A stretch of DNA of 64,000 nt from Cirrosporium novae-zelandiae (lineage: Eukaryota): contig JAPETS010000056.1 of assembly GCA_026023565.1 (NCBI GenBank), forward strand, positions 62,001 to 126,000, written 5' to 3'. The notes under the pieces are model-generated. The model did not search any database and was not told the origin of the DNA. It saw nothing but the letters and a program-made list of their open reading frames with translations. The translations under genes and the position numbers were made by a program. Shown here in pieces: positions 29,796 to 51,544 of the stretch. Positions within the stretch are counted from its first letter, which is position 1. The number at the start of each line of letters is the position of its first letter.

Positions 29796-31567
29796 TCAAA
29801 CCCCAAATCCCCTCATAACCGCCAACATAACCGGCGAATACATCATAACGTCATTATGAGCCCCAAACCTAACAATCTCCAACCTCACCCTGACAGCCCG
29901 CTCCGGGATTTCAAAAACCTCGACCCTAGCCTCTTTCGCTTTACTCCTCCTGCTGCTGCTGCTCCCGCCCACCCCATCCCCATTCCTCCAAACAACATCC
30001 CTCGTCGTCCCACTTCTTTCAATCTGGGAAGCAACAATGCCTTCAAAAAGCCCAACCCCCTGTAAAACAGGAATATCCCAATCATCTCTCGCATGTAGGA
30101 TCTGAACATCTAATTTGCTGCCCTCCACTACTGCTGCTATTTCCCTTTCCCTTTCCCTACCACCACCCACATTCTCAACCCCAAACTCCCCAACCATTCT
30201 CTGTAGTCTCCCCAACGTATCCCAATGGTCGCATACGAAATGATTGAGGATGTATTTTTGGACTGAGGGGAATATTCGTAGGGGGGAGAGAATGGGGATG
30301 AGGTGTAGGATTGAGTAGGCTGGGAGGAGGGAGGGCATGGTTATGAAGGGTGCGACTAGGATTAGGGAGGCTGGGGGGATGGGGCGAGAGTGAGGGTGGG
30401 AGTGAGAAGTGTTGATGGCTGGAGGGGAGGGGGCGATTAACGGAGTTTGTTCATCTGGGGTTACGGGTATGAGGGTGGGGTCGGTGGGGCGCATACTAGC
30501 GGTGGTGGTGGTGATGTCTCCGTCTATTCCGGACTCCCCATTCTCCAATACGCGTTCGATATTGCCATCAACACCACCAATATCATTCTGACCTCCCAAC
30601 AAATACTTCTCACAAACCGCAGTAGCGACGGCGGTCCCGAGACTCTGGCCCAAAATAACAACGTTCTTTGGATTCACGCCCATATCGTATAGCACGAAGT
30701 TCAGGAATGCGGTGCCGTCTGTGATTAGACCTGCTTCGGTTGGTTGGGGTGATGGGTGCGAGAGCCCGTAGGATCGGTAGTCGAGGGTTAGGATGTGTGT
30801 GTTTGGGAGGGTGGAGAGGAGGCGGAAGGTCGGATGGCGGTGGGTTTGGGCTAGGTGGCCGGCATTTCCATGGACTGTTGTGCTTGGGAAATGAGGTTGA
30901 TTAGTTGGTTCGTTTGATTAGAGGATGTGAAAGGAGGGGGGGTAAGGAGAGAGAAGAAGAAGAAGAAGAAGAGGAAGAAGTACAACTTATAACCACCTTG
31001 GCATCCGGATCATCCTTTAAGAAATTAAAATGTGCCGATTGCGTGAACTCGGCTTTGGTGAGTGGGGATTTGGTCACGGGAGAGTTTCTGAGAATCGTGG
31101 ATTGCTTTTCGTAAGTTGTTAGGGGTAGGATATGCCATGCGTAGAGGGTTGCATTGTCGTGGGTTTGGAGGGTGAAGGGTTGGACTTGGTTTCCTATGGG
31201 GGAGGGAGTTAGTGAGGATGAGATTTGGGGATTTGGGGAGGGGGGTTACGTTACTGGAGAAACCGAAGGATTCCGGGTCGTTGAGATTATGCCACCAGCC
31301 GGCTGTGTGGAATTTGTTTGCGTAGACAGCGCTGGGGGAGTGAGCAAGTTAGCGGAGGGGATGGTGTTAGGATTATGACACTCTCAAATCATGGGATTAT
31401 ATATGGTATATATCTTGGTCGGGGAAATATAAAGAGGGCATATGAAAAAGAGAGAGGAGAAGAACTCACAAGCGTTGAACATTAGGATGTAAAAGTGCAG
31501 CAAGAAAGACAACATATGTGCCCCCAATGGAGAGGAGCACCGTATACGTGATTTCACCGGGAGTCAT
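29796..31567 (-). CDS. Alpha/beta hydrolase, ABHD12/Bem46-like, with N-terminal membrane anchor; three introns
   Basis: Spliced motifs DPESFGF, LYAWHILP, HGNAGH, LDYRSYG.S, PTEAGLITD, nucleophile GQSLG, HARDDWDI, GAHN. Confidence 0.85.
30951..30980. repeat. (GAA)n microsatellite inside an intron of the hydrolase gene
   Basis: gagaagaagaagaagaagaagaggaagaag. Confidence 0.8.
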
Positions 31568-32245
31568 GATTAAAAAAGCACTGGAAGAATTTATTCCCTT
31601 CAAATGTCACAGGATAGGATTGTCATATAATATAGATAACCAACAAGACTTATCACGGCCAGGCAACAGCAATAACTTTTGGGGTATAATGACCTAGACA
31701 GGGAACGTTAGAAATGATAGCAGGGACATCAGCAACGACAACTTGATAATAATATGGAATTTATATGCACAAGGTGTGGAATAATTCTATGTTTTGTGCT
31801 GCTAAAAATGATGCCAACATGTTGTCTAATCTATAATATTGCGTGCCTGGGTAACGCTCCCCCCTTCGGCCCGGCGTTTAGGACCCATATTTTATTATAT
31901 TTCATCATCAAGGAACGAACTTTAATTCAACATCAATTTATGAAGGACTTGCATTAACGTATAGCGTCTATTAATATAATAGTAGCGTTAGCAATCACAG
32001 GCCACGTATTATACGAATAATTAAATATTAGTGCAATGGGAGTTGTTATTTATGTTAGGGTATGGACCCTGACCCCACCGCACGGACCACCACATTCACC
32101 ACAAAAGTAGGATCTTTAGGTAGAATAATTGATGAGCATGTATTCAATCTAGAAGGCTAGATCGATGCTACAAGCCATTCGCGACATTTTTGCTGCATGA
32201 CCAAGTAAGAATGATCTATTATTGCAGACTCAAAGAAAACCTAAA

Positions 32246-34789
32246 CTATGCAAGACATTGATCAATCAGGGCCGAAAAATCAGCTGGACGAGGGCTTGAA
32301 ACAAACTGAGAACATTCAATGAGATGATGGATCCAGAATTCATTGGCATATGAATGTAGGCCATGAAAACCATTGGCAATCATACGTTGCTTCTCGTCGA
32401 GTGAGATTTTGGGGTCTAATAGAGTAAAGTTTGAAGTTATGGATGCGGCACATGAGATGGCAATACTGCAATGGGCTCTAAAAGGGTCGAGGTAAGGTCT
32501 ACTGAAATTACTTTTAAGGTACCTGGTCAATACATCAGCATGTTATAAAGACTAAAAGTGTTCGACGTAGATGGTCTACTCTTTAACTGAGAAATGGAAA
32601 AAATCTACCAGGCCTCCACGGCGTCGTTCAATAAGGGGCTTGCACAGATCAAGGCTACCTTCTTTCAATTTCGTATCCAGGTTTAAAAATATGTTATCAT
32701 TATCAAACACTACGCCATCCTGTATTTCAAATTCTTTGAGGGGCCTAAAGCGAAATGCAAGCCACCACAAGCTTCTAAGAGCTCTTTCTCGAAGCTTAAC
32801 GTCTCCTCTACTCTTGGCCTCGATACGCATAATCATTCGATCATATCTTTTAAGGTTAGTAATAACGACTCGAAAGTGATGCGCTCAACGTACGCTTCAT
32901 TCAAGCCCGCGGGGAGATCGCGAACAGCAGATTCCAGTTCAAGACCACTGCCGCACTCTTCAAGCGTGGAAAGAACAAGGTATACCTAAAGGAACATGCC
33001 TTCAGAAGGTAAGAAAGAAGCATGTCAATGGGCAAAAGGTAGAAACATAGACAACATACCATCAGCTTTTCTCATGATCTCGCACCCTAGGCGAATAACA
33101 GAGTCATTTCCAAACCGTTCTTGGAGAGGAATGAGCCTGGCTGTAACATATGATCCTATAGCCTTTTTAATGGCAGGGCGCTCGTCTCGGAGCGATACTA
33201 TGGGCTTATCCTTCAGGGTGCGGGATATTGGCTCAACATCCCTCAAAGATAATAGAAGCTTCAAGGTAGGTCCTGATGCTTTACTGACCCTAGTGAGGTC
33301 TTCCAAAACGACCTTTTGCTCGTGCGGCTCCCATTCATCTAAGCCATCAACAATTATCCGAAGACCTGAGAGAGTTTGGAGCAAGTCGGGAAGTAAGCAT
33401 GTCAAACTAGGTTTTAAGGGCCTCTTAGCTTTGCTGATATATTGGTCACATATATACGGAACTATCCCATTGTTCGCCATTAAGAGTTGCAAGACTATTG
33501 TTTTTAAGATCTGGTTCGGTCGGTTCTGACTCTCTGGATTGTTGGTACAGAAATAGTACACCACACAGCTATCACCTATTTGTTGTGTAAGGTGGACGGC
33601 TAAATATGAGCATAGCACGCTTTTCCCTGACCTTGTCAATAATGAGATGTACAACTTGTAGAGACTGATTTAGCTTCTTACCCGAGCCCGGGTTACCTTT
33701 AAGCCATACAATTCTATGACTGTTCCCATTGCCTACGAAATAAGAAATTGCACTATGTTGGAGGATCCAGTCACAGCTTTGCGGATGACAGCGATCTTGA
33801 AGGGCATCGAGACTATCATCATGAGACCTATTTTCTGCAGATAACCATATTCTGACATCTTGGATTTGAGTTGCTAGGCGCAGTTTCTCTTGTTTTGTCG
33901 CATCTTCGTCTGCCTTTTGTCTCGATATTTTTGCCTCAACGATATTGATTAAATTGGCTTCTTGATCGACAAGATCTTTGTGTTCATTGAGTTTTTCAAG
34001 GATGGTCTTGAATCGAATATCGAAGTCTGCCCATGCAGATAGGAAGAGCAGTTGCCATCCTAAGTGTTGTCAGCTGTGTTTAATATAGATTCCTAGCACC
34101 TCATACCACGTCTCCGGAAGAACTTATATGCACGGCGATGGAATTCTAGCACATCCACATAGACAAGTGATAAAACCTGCTGAAAACGACGGTCATTCTT
34201 GAAAACCTCACTGAGTCGGTCGAAACGTGGAAAAGCCTGAGCAATTTTCGCATACGCATCGATGAGATTCTCAAAGATATTTGTATAGCCGCTAGCAAGC
34301 TATCACAGAGGTGGTTCAATTAGTGGGTGTCTTTTAAATTATTACGTGTTTGTAGGTTTGTCACGGCTCATCTCTAGGGCATATTTTCGCCCCACTTAGC
34401 CAAGAAGATATCCGACAGCTAACTGAGTTCTAATTTTTCGCATACCTGAAGCATCAGTTTAATAGGAGCCTTGAGAATATCATCAATTTCATTAATATAA
34501 ATGTTGCTTGTGTTTTTCTTACCCAAATCCATGGCATATATGGTGTCCCGTTGCAGACAACCTCAATGACCTTTGGATATTGCTCCAAACTTGCTAGCAG
34601 TGGTTCAATGCGTCGCATATTTCGCAATGACTGTCGTTCAGCCAGTTGGCGTTCGATGGCTCTGGCAGCCTCCCAAACATCGTTGAGAGTTGTTGACTGA
34701 AAATTTTGAGCATCGTCATTAGTAACAGCTTTACTTAACCTTTCGAATACTTCTTGGAACGCCGGGGGTTGATAAATCTGGCAGCTCAT
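32246..34789 (-). pseudogene. NACHT-NTPase (fungal NLR-like) gene with Goodbye/DUF7708-like N-terminal helical domain; in-frame stop in the GMFLW motif and no C-terminal sensor domain
   Basis: Eight exons splice in frame: FQSTTLNDVW..RNMRRIEP..WIW|APIKLMLQ|..YVDVLEFHRRAYKFF|..CDWIL..WLKGNPGS|GKSVL (Walker A), IIVDGLDE (Walker B), KAD|GMFL*VYLV (TAG at 32988-32986), LPAGLNE|AYDR, RPLK, HFSVK|EYL, LHSYANEFWIHH; reading frame ends at TAG 32248-32246. Confidence 0.8.
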
Positions 34790-35170
34790 GATGACGATAT
34801 AAGGGCGAAAAGTCTCCTGGCCTTGGAAATTTTGCGGGAATTCTAACTCATTTACAAAGCCAAGATTAGGCATGACAATGCTAGCTGAAAGGTACTCAAA
34901 AGATACAGATTCTGCCTTATACTGTGGGGCTACGAGGCTATGAATCTACATAGGTAAAGTACACGCTATTGTTGTCACCAAATAAGATGCCTGAGACCAG
35001 ATGCACTACCAAGTCAGAGGCCCTACTCACTTGTTGCAGATGGCACAGCCTGATGCTTCGAGGATTTAAGCAAGTGAATACGCCACAAGAATAGAATATG
35101 ACCATCAGATTAGAGGTTGACTTCTTGCTCCTTAAGTAATGATTTTACATATTTTTGCATGGCTTTTTAT

Positions 35171-35186
35171 ACTACCCTAGGGTAGT
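35171..35186. promoter_or_regulatory. Perfect 16-bp palindrome ACTACCCTAGGGTAGT in the NACHT/SNF2 divergent intergenic region
   Basis: Self-complementary sequence seen directly; function inferred only. Confidence 0.35.
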
Positions 35187-35427
35187 CTGCTTAACTTAAT
35201 TCGACTCCCCTCTGGCGGTTATTCTGAATCCTGGAATTCATCTCTTCTAGGGGCTGGTAGGCAGATTGACACGTTTCACCAAATGAAAATCGAGTCGTTG
35301 TCGCTCAAGAGCACTCACATTTGTGACTAAATAACATGTACCCTCATTTAAATTGACGGTGGAACTTATTAATGACTTATATGTTCAACAGGCTCGAAGG
35401 GTGAATTAAGGTTCAAGGGCTCGAGAT

Positions 35428-38400
35428 ATGGATGCACACATTTCATCGAAAAAACAATGCTTGCAAAGACCTTCCGATGCCCTACACTACTTTGACCCGG
35501 CGAGAGAAAGAGATATTTTGATGAAAGCTTTACAAGAACAACCAAATAAAACTAGCAATCCGAATGTGTCAAGAAGAATCAATAACTGTAGCCCCAATGC
35601 TTCTGGCATCAAATGAGAGGAGAACTATGGCCCTCGCAACGGTATCACATGGGATTTGGATGGCATGGGACCATTATGCTCGTCCCAATCTACCTATACA
35701 CATGAAGGCAAGCCGCTTCCTTATGTCAATCCTGGATCGATTGAGCCACATCGTCCAACAGCGTACTATGATCATGAATCGCGTTTCCCTAGCTCGCAAA
35801 CATTCAATACCCGGGCCCCTCGTGATTACACGTGGATGAAACAGCTGGGAGAAACGCAACACTTGTCTTTCAAAGATAGCTTAAACTTTTTGGACTCAGA
35901 ACAGAACCCTATCTTCAACCCGAGCAGCACGGGATCGTCCTATCAATTGGTTGATTATGCACTACATAAAAATCCTCCAATTCTTTATAGTCAAGACACC
36001 TATAACGAGATATCGACCTCCCGCGAAGCAATCTTACGAACAAAACCGCAGTATATTTCAATGAGTGACTCCGCGCAGGAGGAGCAGGGAGGTGAAGAAG
36101 CATCGTCATCTAGGCCCTACAAAGGAGATATAGTTGATGAGATTGAAACCAATTCACATAAGGTTGACCAAATTTGTTTTGGCATGGTAAATCCATCTAC
36201 CTTATTTCGTATACCCTAGTTAATAAACCTAGATTGCTCATCTCGATATGGAAAGAGTAAAACCAGACTCACCAATACTGATCAACATGGATGTTGATGT
36301 CACAAACCAAGACGTCCTCTCGAAAGACACGAATCCGGTTCGGCTTGGAGTGTTGACAGACGGTGTTGTGGATGTTCTTAATACTTTAAAGGCTAGGGCT
36401 TGCATTCACCTCCAGATGTATTGTTCCTCAAGGAAGGACGAACCACAGACCATTAATATCCCTAGGAAGAAGCCTCGGACATGTGCTTACAAAATTACTC
36501 TTTGTGTGAACTTATACGGACCTTCACAACTCTTCGATAATGTTGAAGACTTTCTCCAAGGGTGCGGAGTTTACTTACAAGACCCCCAGAATTGTGACAG
36601 GCGGGTTCCTTACAGGAATCCGCACTGTATGTGGACACTAGGTGATACTAAATTTACGTCAGACCTGAGAAATAACACAGCTCCCTCAATCATAGAATCA
36701 ATTAACAAATATGTGGATCCACTAGCCGAGTTTGAAACAGGTCAGAGCCTACCTGAGACTCCAGCCCCTTCAGCAATAAAGACCATCCTTTACCCGTATA
36801 ATATAATCTGCCTCTCATCCGGCCGATAATTTGTCTGTTGCTAATAACTCTTAACAGACATCAACGGCAGGCCTTAACGTTTATGACGCAGCGAGAACTA
36901 CCATGCAATCCACAGGATCACCATCCGAACAGGATCCCAGAGTATGTGTTCATTGACTCTAGTTAGAAATAAGATGGGGACGCTGAAATATGTAGATTTA
37001 TGGATAGCTCGTCTGGAGAATGGCGGTTGGATGAGCTATCTACCTTCCGAGGTGGGCTTCTTGCAGATCCAATGGGGCTAGGCAAGACATTGACTATGAT
37101 ATCCCTCATCGCCTCAAATCCGATGCAAGGGATGGATACAAAAAATAGTGAAACGTTTGTTAAATCAGCCCTCCTCGTCGTACCTCCCTCATGTATGATT
37201 TCCTTTTCTTTATCCTTCTGTGTATATCGCTGACTATTTAAAGTATTGAAAACCTGGGAAAACCAGCTCTCCTTGTCAATATACCACCATTTTCTTTTCG
37301 GCCTTCTCAACAAGTCAAGCCAACTCGAACCAGATCGGAACGGGTTCTTATTTTGTTAAAAGACCTACCTAACGTGCAATTTGGAGATGCATGAACTCGC
37401 TCGGTTTTCATGTCCTTGTCAGTATTGACTCCTTTCTAGGCATGTTCACCCTGGGACGATGTCGTGGATTAAATATCACGGATCAGCGAGACATTTAGTA
37501 GAATTTGCAAAATATGATATAGTTCTTACTACTTTTCACACTTTAGCGGGTGAGTGGAAAAAACAAGAGAAGAAAAACGGGAGGCCTAATTTGATATTCT
37601 CCTTGGTATGGCACCGTGTCGTTCTTGATGAAGGTACGTCCTTGATCACAATCTGCTCTCTGGATATTACAATACTGAATTTCATGCCTGTGTCTTTTTT
37701 CTGATGTATTATCCTTGATTCTGCTGCATATTTGCTAACCTTCTTGGCTCATATCATTCGGCAAAAGTCGGCAGTAATTACAAAAGCCATGTGCGCCATT
37801 CGTGCAAGCTCGCGGTGGGCGGTGACAGGAACCCCTATCCAAAATCGGCTTTCCGATCTTGGCAGCCTCTTCCAGTTCCTCCGGATAACCTCACATGATC
37901 CCACATTTGTTGACCGTGAGATTTCAAGTTCCTGAAAGAGAAACTCCGGGGTCGATGTGATCAATCGATTAAAGGCGCTTTTCCAGCTAATATCCTTGAG
38001 AAGGCCTAAGACTATTATTTAGCTCCCTCCTCGTGAGGATGAAATTCATTACCTTCACCTGCGTGATTCTGAAAGAGCAGCTTACAAAATGGCCCAAGAT
38101 CAAGTTATGAACATGATCAATGATCCCCAGAGTGTCCAGATGAAAGTTCCACAGTCATCTAGTCACATTCTAAGGTTGATTAGCACATTGCGGAAGATAT
38201 GTAACCTAAGATTAATTCATGGTCAACACGAGGTGTCTCAGCTCTCGCCTTCATTATGGAGTCACTCAACGGCTCAAGAGCTCTTCAGCAATATGACGTC
38301 CACTGGGAGAGCATTTTGCACTAGATGTTCGTCGGACTTAAACATAGAAGACCCCAGCAATGTGGAAGTGGGCTCTGATATCTACCGACCACGCCTCTAC

Positions 38401-39323
38401 AAGTGCTTAAGGCTACTATGTGGAGGCTGTGTCAATGAGGCTCAAATTCTTGGCTCTGGAATTAGTGCTTGTGAACACGGAGATTCTGTTAACTGTACTT
38501 CGTTTGAGCTCAGCTCACGACGTCTCTCTGCCTCCCCATCCGTCAATGCTGAGTTATTTCCGGAAATTACTAGTTTAGAAGCTCTCCCACCAAAAGTTAA
38601 AGCGCTGATTGCCAGTCTACAGGGATTGCCAGAGAATCAGAAGAGGTTTAATACCTGCCTAATATGGGAAACCAATGCTGATGATCATAGTGTTGTATTT
38701 TCATTCTGGACCTCCACTCTTGATATCATCAAGCTTGGCCTCAGGTTTGCAGGCTTTGCAACCAGGAGCTACGTACGCGTCGATGGCAAAACCCCACCAA
38801 AAAATAGGTCACACTTTATAGATCAATTCCAGGCCGATCCATCTATCTGGGTGATATTGATATCTCTTTCTTGCGGAGCTACTGGGTATGCCCTAACATT
38901 TCTCCCCAGGTTTATGAATTCGACTGCTGACTATCTTGTGCTAAGCTTAACCCTAACTGCAGCATCTCGTGTATACATTATGGAGCCACAATGGAACCCC
39001 ATGCTAGAGGAACAAGCTCTGGACCGAGTCCACCGAATTGGACAGACACGAATGACCACGACCGTCCGATATATCATCAAAGATTCCATAGAAGAGGCAC
39101 GTTTCGTACTCCTAATAGGGTTAAGTCTGGCAACTAACTTGGAGAAGAATATCATGAAATTACAACTAAAAAAGCGAGATCTTGCAAGTCTTATCCTCTC
39201 CCAGACCCGCTTGTGCGAGGGGGATGCTCAAGCAACTCAACTAGAGGCAAGTACTGTCTTCCTTTGCCATTGAGATGTGAAAATTCTAATTTGTTCCAGC
39301 AACTTTGCGCTCTAGTAAAATGA
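35428..39323 (+). pseudogene. SNF2-family ATPase, Rad5/Rad16-like with a degenerate RING-like insert; several inactivating lesions
   Basis: Motifs LYPHQRQALTFM..RE, GGLLADPMGLGKT, LLVVP, DIVLTTF, WHRVVLDE(A)[59 protein letters not shown]. In-frame stops TGA 35614, TGA 37933 and TAG 38020; the expected AG acceptor before AHIIR reads GG (37746-37747). Confidence 0.85.
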
Positions 39324-40163
39324 ACGGAATAGTACTTCTTTTTTTCATGGTGTTTGTCATATATGAGATCCATAGACTATTAAAGGGTTCTTCTATAAGG
39401 TCTTTCATTTGCGCTCTACGAGGCTGTCTTCTCGAACTAGAAGGTCCAAGGTTTTGTGAATTCAATACGCGAAGTCCGGGTGGTAGAACTTGTTAGGTCA
39501 TAGCATCAGCTATTGAAATGGCTACCTAAGAAGCTAGTGAAAAAAAAAACAAATTCTCAAAATATAAATTTGATCAATTTTCGTCGCAACCTCCATCGCT
39601 ATCGCTATCTCGTGTTATAGAACATTAAGGTAATTAGTGGCATTAAAAATGTAGCTAATCTAATTCCGACCAAAACAATAAATAATGGTAAAGATCGTGC
39701 CTCGGGTTCAGGATAAAAATCTATCCGTGGGTCCTCCCGTATGTCCTGTGGAGGTCCTTGTCGTTTCAATAGTTTGCTGGATAAATGGACTTTGGTTTGT
39801 CGTTGTTGGCGGTGCCAAATGAAGGATAACGGAGATTGTGGAGTTAATCCAACGATGACGGATAAGACTTCAGATAGCAACTTTAACTGACTTCACCGTG
39901 ACTACAATGACTACTATGGCAGCCACTCACCAATTGCTAGCGATGATGATACCTTCAGAGCAGAGGGAAATCCCTTGATGTTAATAATGGCAATAATGTA
40001 ATATCCTCTCGCACTGGATTGATGTTCTTTCAATGTTAACGCCGAAGCCCCCTCCGTATCGGCATCTTTCATATTTCCTACAAAGAGCTCTCGAATGAGG
40101 TAAGTATACAAGACATGGAACTCTAGGAACTCACCTTATTCAGATTTCCATCATAGATTCTCC

Positions 40164-49549: not shown

Positions 49550-51544
49550 TTTGTCACATTATTCTCCTCCACTATTGTCAACCTGTTATTGTAGATGTGA
49601 AGGAATTGGGAAGAGGGAAGAGCATACACGACCGAGTAAAAGGGTGGCTAATAAACAGCAAATCACAATAGACGGATGAATCTACATTACAAGTCATGAC
49701 TTTGACTGTCCACATCTCATCCCGATTAAGTACTGTAACCACTAGATCTTTCAATCAATGAGAAAGTGTCACGTTTCTCTAAAGATAGTGCTCAAATCAA
49801 TAGTCAAACTGATGCTAGGTAAGTCGAATAATTAACCCCCGATGCCACCATATCCCCTTTCCAACCCCAGCTCATATCACTCCTACTCCCGCAACTCCCG
49901 TTCCCACCCCAAGTATTTTCCATCCTACCCGCCCGACCGACCGTTCCGACAGGCATATCATGTAACCACGGGAACCTAGCGGCCCTGACGGATATGAGAC
50001 GTGTTTAATTGGTATTTGTTCATTGTTACTTGTTGATTGAGATGGTAATTGGTTGAGAGTAATATAAGACGCGGAGATCCTTGATCGACAAGATTTGAGT
50101 TTATCGGATTCTTGTTTTTAGGGCTTCCCGGCACTACGTAATGAGATGGCAAGGATATTAGATACTTTATGTAAGAAAGGGTATGAAGGGGGGGGGCTAT
50201 GGTATGGTACTTAATTTACAGTTTACAAAGTAAGTGAAATAAAATGAAATGAAAATGAAACAAAAGATTTGGGTTTGGTTTGATTAGATAATTAAATTGA
50301 AAAAGAACGTTCACTTTATTTTACTTTGATATAGATAAGTACTTATAGTATGGGGGTGAAAGTTAAATTCTTTACAGTAGGGGAGGAGGGTTTCGCGTTT
50401 TCGTAGGACATGGTTTTCAATGGGAGATTGCAGGTATCTGTGGGTATAGGGCGTATGTATATATTATGTGTATGTATGCAATTAATTATGATATACATGA
50501 ATTGATATAATTAAAGGAGAGATACCAGGAAAGGAAAAGAAAAAAAATAGATGGTACAGTAAACTATTTATCTATATAGTTTAACCGAGAGTCATTGATG
50601 AAATTAATAGATATTGTGTGATCACTGGATCAAACGTCCACACGGCCAAGGACCAAAAAAAACAAGCCTTAAGATTTTCTCTAGTTTTATTTTATTTTTA
50701 TTTTGTTTTAATTGATCTAGAAAGTAATGGAAAATATTGAAAGGAAGCTAAGGTAAGTCAGTTAGACTAGGTCGTAGTGTTTAGGATATGTGTATGATGG
50801 TTATGTATAATGATTGCAGTTCTGGGAAACTTTGCATCATCTATATTTATAGGTAGACATATATCCATTTCATCGTCATCGTTGTCTTCCTCAATTATAA
50901 ATAACAGATTATATATGGTTCACAAATAGGTCATATTATGATAATGATGATGAAGAGGATGCAAAAATTAATTAAATCTTTCTCATTTCTCAATGATATA
51001 TCCCAAACCCTTCCTTCTTTCCATGTATTTCTCCTTCCCGCCCCCCAATTCCATGTAGAATAAAATCATAAGTATACAATAAGTAAGGAGTTTGGATAAA
51101 AGAAACCAAATCCTTTCCAAAAAAACTATGCCAAATTTTTGTTAAGTTGTCTTTTGAGTCCCCCCCCCCAGTGGAAACAAATGAGAACGACGGGGAAGAC
51201 CCTCAAACTTATGCCCGGGTATCTATGCGCAAACAAAAATCCCCAAAACCCCAAAATGATAATAATACCAACAGCGTAGGACATGATCCTGAAGAAAACT
51301 GATCAAACGTACATCAGCCATCAGCCGTTAACCGAGCTATGCATCCAAAGTAACAATTCCAAACAAAACACGTTCAATAACGGGCCAAGGCAAGAGCCTA
51401 ATTAGTATATATCCTTCAAATATTCTTAAGAAATAAAATTCCAGCACCCCATTCTTCCCAACTCAATCGGGACTCTTTTCTTTTCCTCTTGGTTTGTTTT
51501 CACGCTTCATTCATTCTACAAATCCGTCATCGTAGCAAGCAGCA

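Follow-up and report, generated by a model that had tools for sequence, protein, structure and literature searches.

A Pseudogenized NACHT-SNF2 Gene Pair in Cirrosporium novae-zelandiae and Its Linked Counterparts in Other Fungi: A Candidate NLR Unit With a Rad5/HLTF-Like Partner

Introduction

Do two broken genes that diverge from a short common spacer belong to one working unit and, if so, of what kind? The question is raised by a stretch of 64,000 nucleotides from Cirrosporium novae-zelandiae (GenBank assembly GCA_026023565.1, contig JAPETS010000056.1, positions 62,001 to 126,000), hereafter the window, along which all coordinates are counted unless a locus is named. On its minus strand lies a gene of the NLR (nucleotide-binding oligomerization domain-like receptor) type, with DUF7708, NPHP3_N and NACHT domains (ATG 34789, stop 32248-32246), and on its plus strand a gene with SNF2-rel_dom and Helicase_C domains (ATG 35428, stop 39271-39273), both delimited from stop-to-stop open reading frames (ORFs), Pfam matches and hand-made gene models. 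An earlier note on this DNA had described the two genes, their start codons and the 638-bp divergent spacer, all of which the hand models confirm, and had proposed that the pair constitutes a unit.

Fungal NLRs are numerous and very few of them have a known partner or trigger. A neighbor that stays beside one NLR family over deep divergences, and diverges together with it, offers a concrete and testable handle on what that family monitors. Here we describe that the same two genes are adjacent and co-evolving in many other fungi, and therefore probably form one working unit. We read the window as holding, in pseudogenized form, a two-gene unit that is old in filamentous ascomycetes and works as an NLR with a linked partner; for the observed and the conjectural parts of this reading taken together, we would put the probability at about one half. 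That the two genes would be functionally coupled in some way is considerably firmer, and we hold it very probable.

Linkage of the Pair in Other Fungi

Metagenome contigs were scanned with two motifs taken from the NACHT alignment alone, KADGMFL[WY] and W[IV]AFAKRP, and 65 loci were confirmed among 157 matched stretches; with 16 SNF2 queries, a Rad5/16-like SNF2 gene was recognized in 19 of the 65. The NACHT chain score separated 46 loci of the window family from 19 with distant NACHTs, and the merging of loci more than 90% identical in nucleotide sequence left 32 distinct family loci. Fifteen of these were informative, i.e., they showed the NACHT N-terminus and at least 2.5 kb of DNA upstream of it. 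In 14 of the 15, the upstream neighbor belongs to the same Rad5/HLTF-like SNF2 subfamily as in the window. Twelve of these pairs stand head-to-head as in the window, with spacers roughly estimated at about -90 to 840 nt, and in the remaining two (L011 and L030, sisters in both gene trees) the genes lie on the same strand.

Two comparisons serve as controls. Downstream of the NACHT gene, no SNF2 gene was found in any of the 11 distinct family loci with at least 2.5 kb of downstream DNA (78 kb in total; one-sided Fisher P 1.6e-6), and none was found upstream of other NACHT families in the seven distinct loci with comparable upstream DNA (one-sided Fisher P 4.7e-5). Furthermore, the window and the 14 pair loci together have 329 flanking ORFs of at least 90 amino acids, and none of the families among these ORFs recurs in three or more loci; conservation thus concerns the pair itself rather than a larger syntenic block. 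One locus dropped as a near-duplicate (L026) represents the L030/L032 locus in a rearranged form, with the SNF2 gene 6 kb downstream and inverted. The SNF2 gene is 99.95% identical between L026 and L032, where it is located upstream and on the same strand as the NACHT gene, an arrangement that fits an inversion of a segment comprising the NACHT gene plus 5 kb.

Co-Descent and Selection

The protein distances of the two genes run closely parallel: over the 105 comparisons among 15 pairs (the 14 loci and the window), the Mantel correlation between NACHT and SNF2 distances is 0.893, a value reached in none of 5000 permutations. Separate maximum-likelihood trees agree on every supported clade. Both contain the window with L004 (approximate likelihood-ratio support, SH-aLRT, 93 and 90), L031 with L044, L056 with L062 and the union of these last two clades, L011 and L030 with L041, and L016 and L029 with L022. 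L008/L009 is the best-matching locus for the NACHT gene of the window (41% identity) as well as for its SNF2 gene (36%). Distances between loci amount to 15-60%, arguing against one locus sampled repeatedly, and the two genes have stayed linked across divergences as large as about 0.6 differences per site, with all the surroundings changed. The pair, in short, is inherited or duplicated together. The earlier note had named linkage beyond chance and congruence of the two gene trees as tests of its central idea, that the two genes are one unit, and both have come out in favor of that idea.

Outside the window, the ratio of nonsynonymous to synonymous substitution rates (dN/dS) was obtained from five close comparisons of the NACHT gene (0.08-0.27) and from four of the SNF2 gene (0.08-0.33); its values indicate purifying selection and hence that both genes are functional elsewhere. 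Apparent stops, seen as one to three X in conserved columns of the SNF2 translations in 7 of the 14 loci, were considered as possible lesions. Those in L044, L011 and L030 were discarded, given that the X's arise beside an intron, where tblastn continues in the wrong frame; at the EPHW/NPT intron, separate in-frame high-scoring segment pairs lie on either side in L044, L031, L056, L011 and L030. The X's in L004, L022, L029 and L049 were listed only, and the SNF2 genes of these loci are called neither broken nor intact.

In two of three close comparisons, divergence is locally raised at the pair. Between L030:6500-13200 and L032, the stretch with the SNF2 and NACHT genes is 96.9-98.2% identical (2-3% divergent) vs. 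99.3-100% in the flanks (0-0.7% divergent). Between L011:7300-14000 and L010, synonymous divergence (dS) is 0.13 for the NACHT gene vs. 0.013 for a partial SNF2 gene, and the 4 kb downstream of the NACHT gene are 85-91% identical. L008 and L009 present no local excess at the pair. Balancing selection maintaining old haplotypes could account for such an excess, as could chimerism of the metagenome contigs, and the excess is a weak hint of an evolution resembling that of allorecognition genes.

The Window Copies as Pseudogenes

Gene models were built by hand, placing the closest homologues with tblastn (35-55% identity for NACHT, with P0121 among the queries, and about 35% for SNF2) and then reading the splice sites; the resulting features are collected in Table 1. 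The NACHT model (2079 nt) is in frame and needs no frameshift. Each of its seven introns (53, 146, 47, 55, 60, 47 and 57 nt) runs from GT to AG and contains a branch-site-like motif. Both Walker A (GNPGSGKS) and Walker B (IIVDGLDEW) have been preserved. The single in-frame stop falls within the GMFLW motif, of which residues G505-M-F-L508 are invariant in a 23-sequence alignment (A1) and are followed by a consensus W. In addition, the model ends at amino acid 692, without the C-terminal region and the C2H2-like finger of its relatives. When eight C-terminal segments were sought with tblastn over the 1.5 kb downstream (E<=20), only noise appeared outside exon 8, and we therefore regard the window gene as truncated at its 3' side relative to most of the family. 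Nine shorter database homologues (542-1329 amino acids) likewise lack the finger.

The SNF2 model (3255 nt) requires no frameshift either, and the homologues P0005 and P0008 match the gene in tblastn with E of about 1e-100. The helicase motifs GLGKT, TGTPIQN and QALDRVHRIGQ are intact, and so is DEAH provided that the intron splitting it is spliced. Precisely this intron has lost its acceptor, and use of the next AG would shift the frame. The two neighboring stops at 36964 and 36970 cannot be intronic, because any GT..AG interval there would be at most 32 nt long and would shift the frame. The stop at 35614 may lie upstream of the true start. As for the other splice sites, the last intron has a GC donor (39097-98) and two further donors are weak (GTCAAT and GTTTAA). 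A single tblastn frame spans most of the gene because six of its introns have lengths divisible by three.

Table 1. Features of the NACHT-SNF2 locus, in window coordinates.
Feature	Position	Strand	Remarks
DUF7708-NACHT (NLR-type) pseudogene	32246..34789	minus	8 exons, 692 codons, in frame
NACHT exons	34789-34523, 34469-34446, 34299-34107, 34059-33682, 33626-33060, 32999-32894, 32846-32580, 32522-32246	minus	Hand model
Only in-frame NACHT stop	32988-32986	minus	TAG, at Trp of GMFLW motif
Region 3' of NACHT stop	31400..32245	minus	C-terminal ~250 amino acids of relatives, with C2H2-like finger, would fall here
Divergent intergenic region	34790..35427		638 bp between both ATGs
Rad5/HLTF-like SNF2 pseudogene	35428..39273	plus	9 exons, 1084 codons, in frame
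SNF2 exons	35428-36186, 36233-36795, 36858-37192, 37244-37274, 37440-37633, 37748-38645, 38691-38885, 38946-39096, 39145-39273	plus	Hand model
In-frame TGA in N-terminal extension	35614	plus	Unconserved; 35/40 homologues gapped there
HIRAN-like domain exon	36233..36793	plus	Motif LYGP...VG.F....YLQDP..C...V.Y.NPH
Two in-frame stops in homology-supported exon	36964-66, 36970-72	plus	TAG and TAA; tblastn and model
DEAH-splitting intron	37634-37747	plus	Acceptor GG for AG at 37746-47
In-frame TGA	37933-37935	plus	Trp in 32/40 aligned homologues
In-frame TAG	38020-38022	plus	Within conserved I-x-LP stretch
Cys-rich insert	38320..38490	plus	C-x2-C ... C-x4-C-x2-C ... C-x-H ... C at Rad5/16 RING position

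Altogether, the window copy is almost certainly non-functional. The earlier note was right that each gene carries disabling lesions, but most of the breaks it saw are introns, and by taking introns for breaks it overstated the decay of the NACHT gene in particular. The stop counts, one in the NACHT gene vs. five in the SNF2 gene, are compatible with equal rates (binomial P 0.25); since they fit a common date, neither an order nor a simultaneity of decay can be claimed. The lesions are unlikely to be polishing errors, because a second assembly (a Logan contig) of the only sequencing run found to contain the stretch, probably its source, shows no difference over 32200-39400, the sample being the same and the assembly thus not independent. 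Two other runs of the same study contain next to nothing of the stretch.

Repeat-induced point mutation (RIP) was considered as a strong cause of the decay and discarded, its indices being normal over 32-39 kb (TpA/ApT 0.64-0.85, (CpA+TpG)/(ApC+GpT) 1.09-1.45); light RIP at the pair could nonetheless have occurred.

Some observations on the gene structures can be added. Neither pseudogene is frameshifted despite five to six stops. Six of the eight SNF2 introns (51, 165, 114, 45, 60 and 48 nt) have a length divisible by three, vs. two of the seven NACHT introns. The EPHW/NPT intron mentioned above, situated in helicase motif VI, is present in all five loci inspected (L011, L030, L031, L044 and L056) and absent from the window gene; the other SNF2 intron positions look common to the window and the loci.

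Domain Composition of the Two Proteins

The NACHT family has an N-terminal DUF7708 domain followed by a NACHT/NPHP3_N module, a winged helix, a helical region and one or more C2H2-like fingers. In the window gene, Pfam recognizes DUF7708 (E 1.7e-6, 28.4 bits) and NPHP3_N (2.7e-19, 70 bits, above the cut-off), and it places NACHT just below its cut-off of 26.7 bits (2.6e-5, 24.6 bits), which the homologues P0121-P0123 exceed at 32-39 bits. DUF7708 is found in homologues as well, and the central part is a NACHT NTPase with Walker A and B motifs as in fungal NLRs. A PDB sequence search with the NACHT profile gave no match at E<=0.01. The C-terminal finger, C-x4-C-QYPPF-x-S-x3-L-x2-H-x4-H, is located near residues 795-890 and occurs in 20 of 29 database homologues and in 18 of the 21 loci examined, two of the three loci without it ending at a contig edge; one locus segment matches several C2H2 models of Pfam below threshold. 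In its C-terminus the family seems to vary. Two single proteins carry further matches in this part: P0144, a weak one to the PHD finger (residues 881-922, E 4.6e-4), and P0134, one to ankyrin below threshold (residues 988-1085, 68 bits vs. a cut-off of 80).

The SNF2 partner has a Rad5/16-like SNF2 core, with SNF2-rel_dom and Helicase_C matched by Pfam on the exon pieces of the window. The closest solved relative of the homologue P0005 is Kluyveromyces lactis Rad5 (6l8n; E 5.8e-60 over P0005 residues 315-909, i.e., the whole ATPase), at a low identity. Upstream of the ATPase, the exon listed in Table 1 encodes a domain whose AlphaFold2 model, built on a 35-row alignment, has a mean pLDDT (predicted local distance difference test) of 78.3. 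The best Foldseek matches of this model are the HLTF HIRAN domain and Rad5 (E 0.07-0.3, probability up to 0.98; 0.07 and 0.97 for the top match). Among 48,161 chains, VIA-align ranks first the HLTF HIRAN domain (Z 7.9, root-mean-square deviation 3.3 over 97 aligned residues), second the HIRAN region of Rad5 (Z 7.0) and third 3k2y (Z 5.8), Z values of 7-8 being middling on the aligner's own scale. In the Atlas, which provides a lead only, 36% of the members of the top cluster by features carry HIRAN, and HLTF/SMARCA3-like clusters are the nearer matches by structure. Given the middling fold scores, and given that Pfam HIRAN has no match at E<=0.1 on the N-terminal domain of the SNF2 protein, this predicted domain is called only HIRAN-like.

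Within the ATPase, the Cys-rich insert sits where Rad5/16 proteins have their RING. Its Cys/His columns are conserved over 49 aligned sequences and all the ligand-like residues are kept in the window; the spacing is not that of a canonical C3HC4. Pfam RING models match only P0003, below the cut-off (zf-RING_5, 24.6 vs. 27.9 bits), and none matches the window piece. Two domain labels used in the earlier note are therefore not confirmed by Pfam: that of RING for this insert, and that of Goodbye for the N-terminus of the NACHT protein, since neither the window exons nor P0121-P0123 match Goodbye (PF17109) at E<=0.1. The Atlas clusters nearest to this N-terminus, again a lead only, are DUF7708 clusters of which 16-22% of the members are also annotated as Goodbye, mixed with NACHT_N annotations.

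Discussion

How would such a unit work? In the passages that PMC9815663 and PMC12258605 devote to them, the Goodbye-like and HeLo-like N-terminal domains of fungal NLRs are described as related to the four-helix bundle of MLKL, and the Sordariales study among these sources groups them as pore-forming (PMC9815663, PMC12258605). For this reason, the NACHT protein is probably equipped with an effector of its own. By analogy with PLP-1 and SEC-9, described below, we would tentatively see in the SNF2 protein a guardee or a co-sensor and in the N-terminal domain of the NACHT protein the executor. The HLTF-like protein would engage DNA 3' ends through its HIRAN-like domain, and it would be the watched component or the co-sensor. 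A change in its state, provoked by foreign or aberrant DNA, by an incompatible allele or by the attack of a parasite protein, would lead the NACHT protein to oligomerize, after which its N-terminal domain would carry out the response, probably the death of the cell. Matched alleles would be held together by tight linkage, and the loss of one partner would free the other from selection, which would account for both being broken in the window. Indeed, a two-part unit of which neither gene is useful alone would be predicted to lose both, and the window offers a natural case in which both are lost. The most specific form of this scheme, namely an undescribed ancient immunity or allorecognition unit in which an NLR of DUF7708-NACHT-C2H2 type watches, or is activated by, a dedicated HLTF/Rad5-like translocase reading DNA 3' ends, and which the lineage of the window has discarded, is a more doubtful proposition.

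Co-folding of P0121 residues 540-975 with the HIRAN-like exon of the window gave a score of 0.00 in both runs; the fragments were non-cognate and the supplied alignments went unused, so that this result counts neither way.

Several points weigh against the reading of the pair as an NLR with its linked partner. Congruent trees are expected of any two linked, vertically inherited genes. The linkage was scored from the NACHT side only and not from the members of the SNF2 subfamily, all of its context consists of metagenome contigs of a few contig-name series, and some of the pairs may be paralogues within a few genomes. When the homologues of both genes were matched by species and contig, only Cladorrhinum sp. 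PSN332 had members of the NACHT and SNF2 families on one contig; they are 31 accession numbers apart and thus not neighbors, and they may be members of different pairs. The one exception among the 15 informative loci, L025, has kept the NACHT gene with no SNF2 gene within 10 kb. From the spacer onward it is 92-96% identical to L006, which carries the SNF2 partner (L025:1-9800 vs. L006:5500-9944). The 10 kb upstream in L025 contain no ORF of at least 120 amino acids, have a G+C content of 35-40% and show strong RIP indices (TpA/ApT 1.7-2.1), which indicates that the position of the SNF2 gene has been overrun by degraded repeats. Its NACHT gene is open and under purifying selection (dN/dS 0.12 against L006). 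At the protein level, the ankyrin (ANK), TPR, WD and HEAT repeats that serve as sensors in typical fungal NLRs were found by Pfam neither in the window gene nor in P0121, P0122, P0123, P0125, P0135, P0142 or P0144. HIRAN, RING and C2H2 all remain below the Pfam thresholds, the fold scores of the HIRAN-like domain are those given above, and the C2H2 fingers with the one weak PHD match fit a purely nuclear, non-immune role equally well. Finally, the run search returned no RNA run among the sequencing runs that contain the stretch.

The comparison of L025 with L006 is in itself a natural case of a pair disrupted by repeats while the NACHT gene stays open.

The alternative that best survives, which we consider unlikely, is a nuclear machine without any immune role, in which the NACHT-zinc-finger protein would be the regulatory or targeting subunit of an HLTF/Rad5-like repair or chromatin enzyme, co-expressed with it from a shared promoter. 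It would agree with the Rad5/HLTF-like architecture, with the C2H2-like fingers and the weak PHD and ankyrin matches of single homologues, with the absence of a canonical NLR repeat sensor, and with the purifying selection on both genes, for which no dN/dS above 1 was obtained. However, the N-terminal DUF7708 otherwise occurs on fungal STAND (signal transduction ATPases with numerous domains)/NLR proteins. Moreover, the unit is dispensable, decayed in the window and disrupted in L025; it evolves fast, pairs reaching an amino-acid distance of about 60%; and its divergence is raised locally with respect to the flanks in two of the three close comparisons. Being dispensable, fast-evolving and locally divergent, it resembles immune or allorecognition genes more than core repair genes.

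The division of labor proposed in the earlier note, with the NACHT protein as the sensor and the SNF2/RING ATPase as the effector acting on invading DNA or chromatin, such as that of a transposon, a virus or nuclei entering the cell, appears rather improbable to us. The evidence of linkage and co-descent would serve it equally, the SNF2 family retains all the ATPase motifs together with a HIRAN-like fold of the kind that binds DNA ends, and the C2H2-like fingers of the NACHT family could read nucleic acid. Against it, the N-terminus of the NACHT protein is already occupied by a domain of the type to which the effector role is ascribed in fungal NLRs: its DUF7708 clusters are partly co-annotated as Goodbye, and Goodbye-like domains are described, in the part of PMC9815663 that concerns them, as related to MLKL and HeLo. 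For its part, the SNF2 protein carries no nuclease or other destructive domain recognizable by Pfam, and the SNF2 proteins of bacterial defense act within multi-gene systems that are absent here. Thus, this assignment of roles is not established; with the N-terminal domain that the NACHT protein has of its own, a role of the SNF2 protein as guard target or co-sensor fits at least as well.

It is very improbable that the pair is the cargo or a selfish module of a mobile element. In this sense could be taken the absence of any flanking ORF family common to the loci, the rearranged variants (L011 and L030 on the same strand, L026 inverted) and the one copy that adjoins RIP-degraded repeats. Nevertheless, no transposase, recombinase or terminal repeats were seen beside the pairs, where no search was aimed at them; the distances between pairs are large and tree-like, unlike those of recent bursts; and the window copy lies between ordinary housekeeping-type genes, without RIP.

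Adenosine-to-inosine (A-to-I) editing of mRNA at the sexual stage exists in some ascomycetes, and by turning UAG and UGA into UGG it might correct the stops of the window genes, which would then be alive. Agreeing with this, the TAG of the NACHT gene and the TGA at 37933 of the SNF2 gene fall exactly on conserved Trp codons, and there is not one frameshift in 5.3 kb of coding sequence. Yet the TAA of the SNF2 gene would require two edits, its stops also affect columns other than Trp, one of its acceptors is lost and one donor is GC, the NACHT gene lacks its whole C-terminal region, and Trp codons are the commonest origin of stops made by transitions; we give this explanation hardly any weight. 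That two unrelated adjacent genes, both of them pseudogenes, stand head-to-head by accident is barely credible: both families are large, and a divergent orientation with a spacer of about 600 bp is ordinary in fungal genomes, but the same neighbor recurs in 14 of 15 informative family loci and in none of the control loci (0 of 11 and 0 of 7), and the trees are congruent.

Relation to Known Systems

The nearest counterpart of the proposed NLR with a linked partner is found in PLP-1 and SEC-9, whose genes are adjacent. PLP-1 is described as interacting physically with SEC-9, a guard model has been discussed, and incompatible combinations kill, according to the relevant part of PMC12881547. As far as that source goes, this system, known in Neurospora, Podospora, Cryphonectria and Botrytis, likewise joins a fungal NLR that has its own N-terminal effector to one specific non-NLR partner. 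Here too, an NLR-type gene has kept one specific non-NLR neighbor over a long evolution, adjacency being found in 14 of 15 loci. The differences are that the partner is a HIRAN-like/SNF2 translocase and theirs a SNARE; that the NLR is of the DUF7708-NACHT-C2H2-like type and theirs a patatin-NB-ARC-TPR protein; and that our pair is known from sequence alone.

The NWD2/HET-S cluster and other clusters with amyloid motifs share with our pair the position of an NLR gene beside the gene of its functional partner, as PMC9815663 presents them (see also PMC3321046). Those NLRs have short N-termini bearing an amyloid motif that is repeated in the C-terminus of the partner, and Goodbye-like NLRs are, in the account of PMC9815663 that bears on them, not usually associated with amyloid motifs. 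With Rad5/HLTF, the SNF2 partner shares the order of a HIRAN-like domain, an SNF2 ATPase split by a Cys-rich insert, and Helicase_C. It differs in the low identity of the window family to Rad5, in the lack of Pfam HIRAN and RING matches and in a Cys/His spacing other than C3HC4; furthermore, the family consists of fast-evolving, dispensable, NLR-linked paralogues and not of a single-copy repair gene.

Two more distant systems had been invoked in the earlier note. The paired NLRs of plants (sensor and helper) stand head-to-head across a short shared spacer and are inherited as a unit, and both members are NLRs. Our pair resembles them in the divergent orientation and the spacer, but it has only one NLR member, the SNF2 partner being without a nucleotide-binding domain in Pfam. 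In bacterial defense, DrmD of DISARM and ZorD of Zorya are SNF2-family ATPases, and they have no NACHT partner. The likeness is that of an SNF2-family ATPase in a putative defense context, whereas the other genes that define those systems are absent here. Both analogies stand as resemblances only, and the likeness to the plant pairs is not one of homology. To the bacterial systems no specific sequence relationship was found, no test having been aimed at DISARM or Zorya.

No fungal system in which an NLR is tied to what happens on DNA is known to us. Linkage of a fungal NLR gene to that of its partner is a known situation; what would be new is the type of partner, an HLTF/Rad5-like SNF2 protein. 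The earlier note knew of no description of such a pair. In the full-text literature, outside which subscription journals lie, we found no paper on a NACHT/NLR-SNF2 pair either; the supplementary neighbor tables of PMC9815663 might list such neighbors for NLRs with short N-termini. Two further papers refer to SNF2 only incidentally. A search for the terms SNF2 and helicase gave no mention in the fungal NLR surveys and review PMC4986451, PMC9815663, PMC12258605 and PMC12881547. An HLTF/Rad5-like partner would tie a fungal NLR to DNA events and, if the scheme proposed here is true, there would be a fungal route from the sensing of foreign or aberrant DNA to NLR-driven cell death. If, on the contrary, the coupling amounts only to the co-expression of a nuclear complex, the pair would still define a new NACHT-containing accessory of an HLTF-like enzyme.

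Genomic Surroundings

The spacer between the two genes presumably acts as a bidirectional promoter. ORFs and Pfam place an alpha/beta-hydrolase gene and a fragment of a K+ transporter on one flank of the pair, and an aldo-keto reductase gene on the other. The earlier note had called the flanking genes intact; this stands for the aldo-keto reductase, which is a single ORF of 295 amino acids, while the hydrolase was viewed only at the level of ORFs and Pfam. In the protein collection, the best foreign matches to the aldo-keto reductase are only 57% identical and belong mostly to Dothideomycetes and lichen-forming fungi, the collection having no close relative of the fungus. With a G+C content of 0.41-0.45, the pair region is poorer in G+C than the flanking coding genes (0.48-0.54) and similar to much of the window.

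The most AT-rich kilobase of the window, 50001-51000, has a G+C content of 0.317 and no RIP-like dinucleotide skew (TpA/ApT 0.88). Closer to the pair, a low-complexity run at 30851-31009, which reads as poly-Ser or as poly-Glu/Phe depending on the frame, separates the hydrolase ORFs 29796-30917 and 30901-31245 on the minus strand, and it probably lies within or beside an intron of the hydrolase gene.

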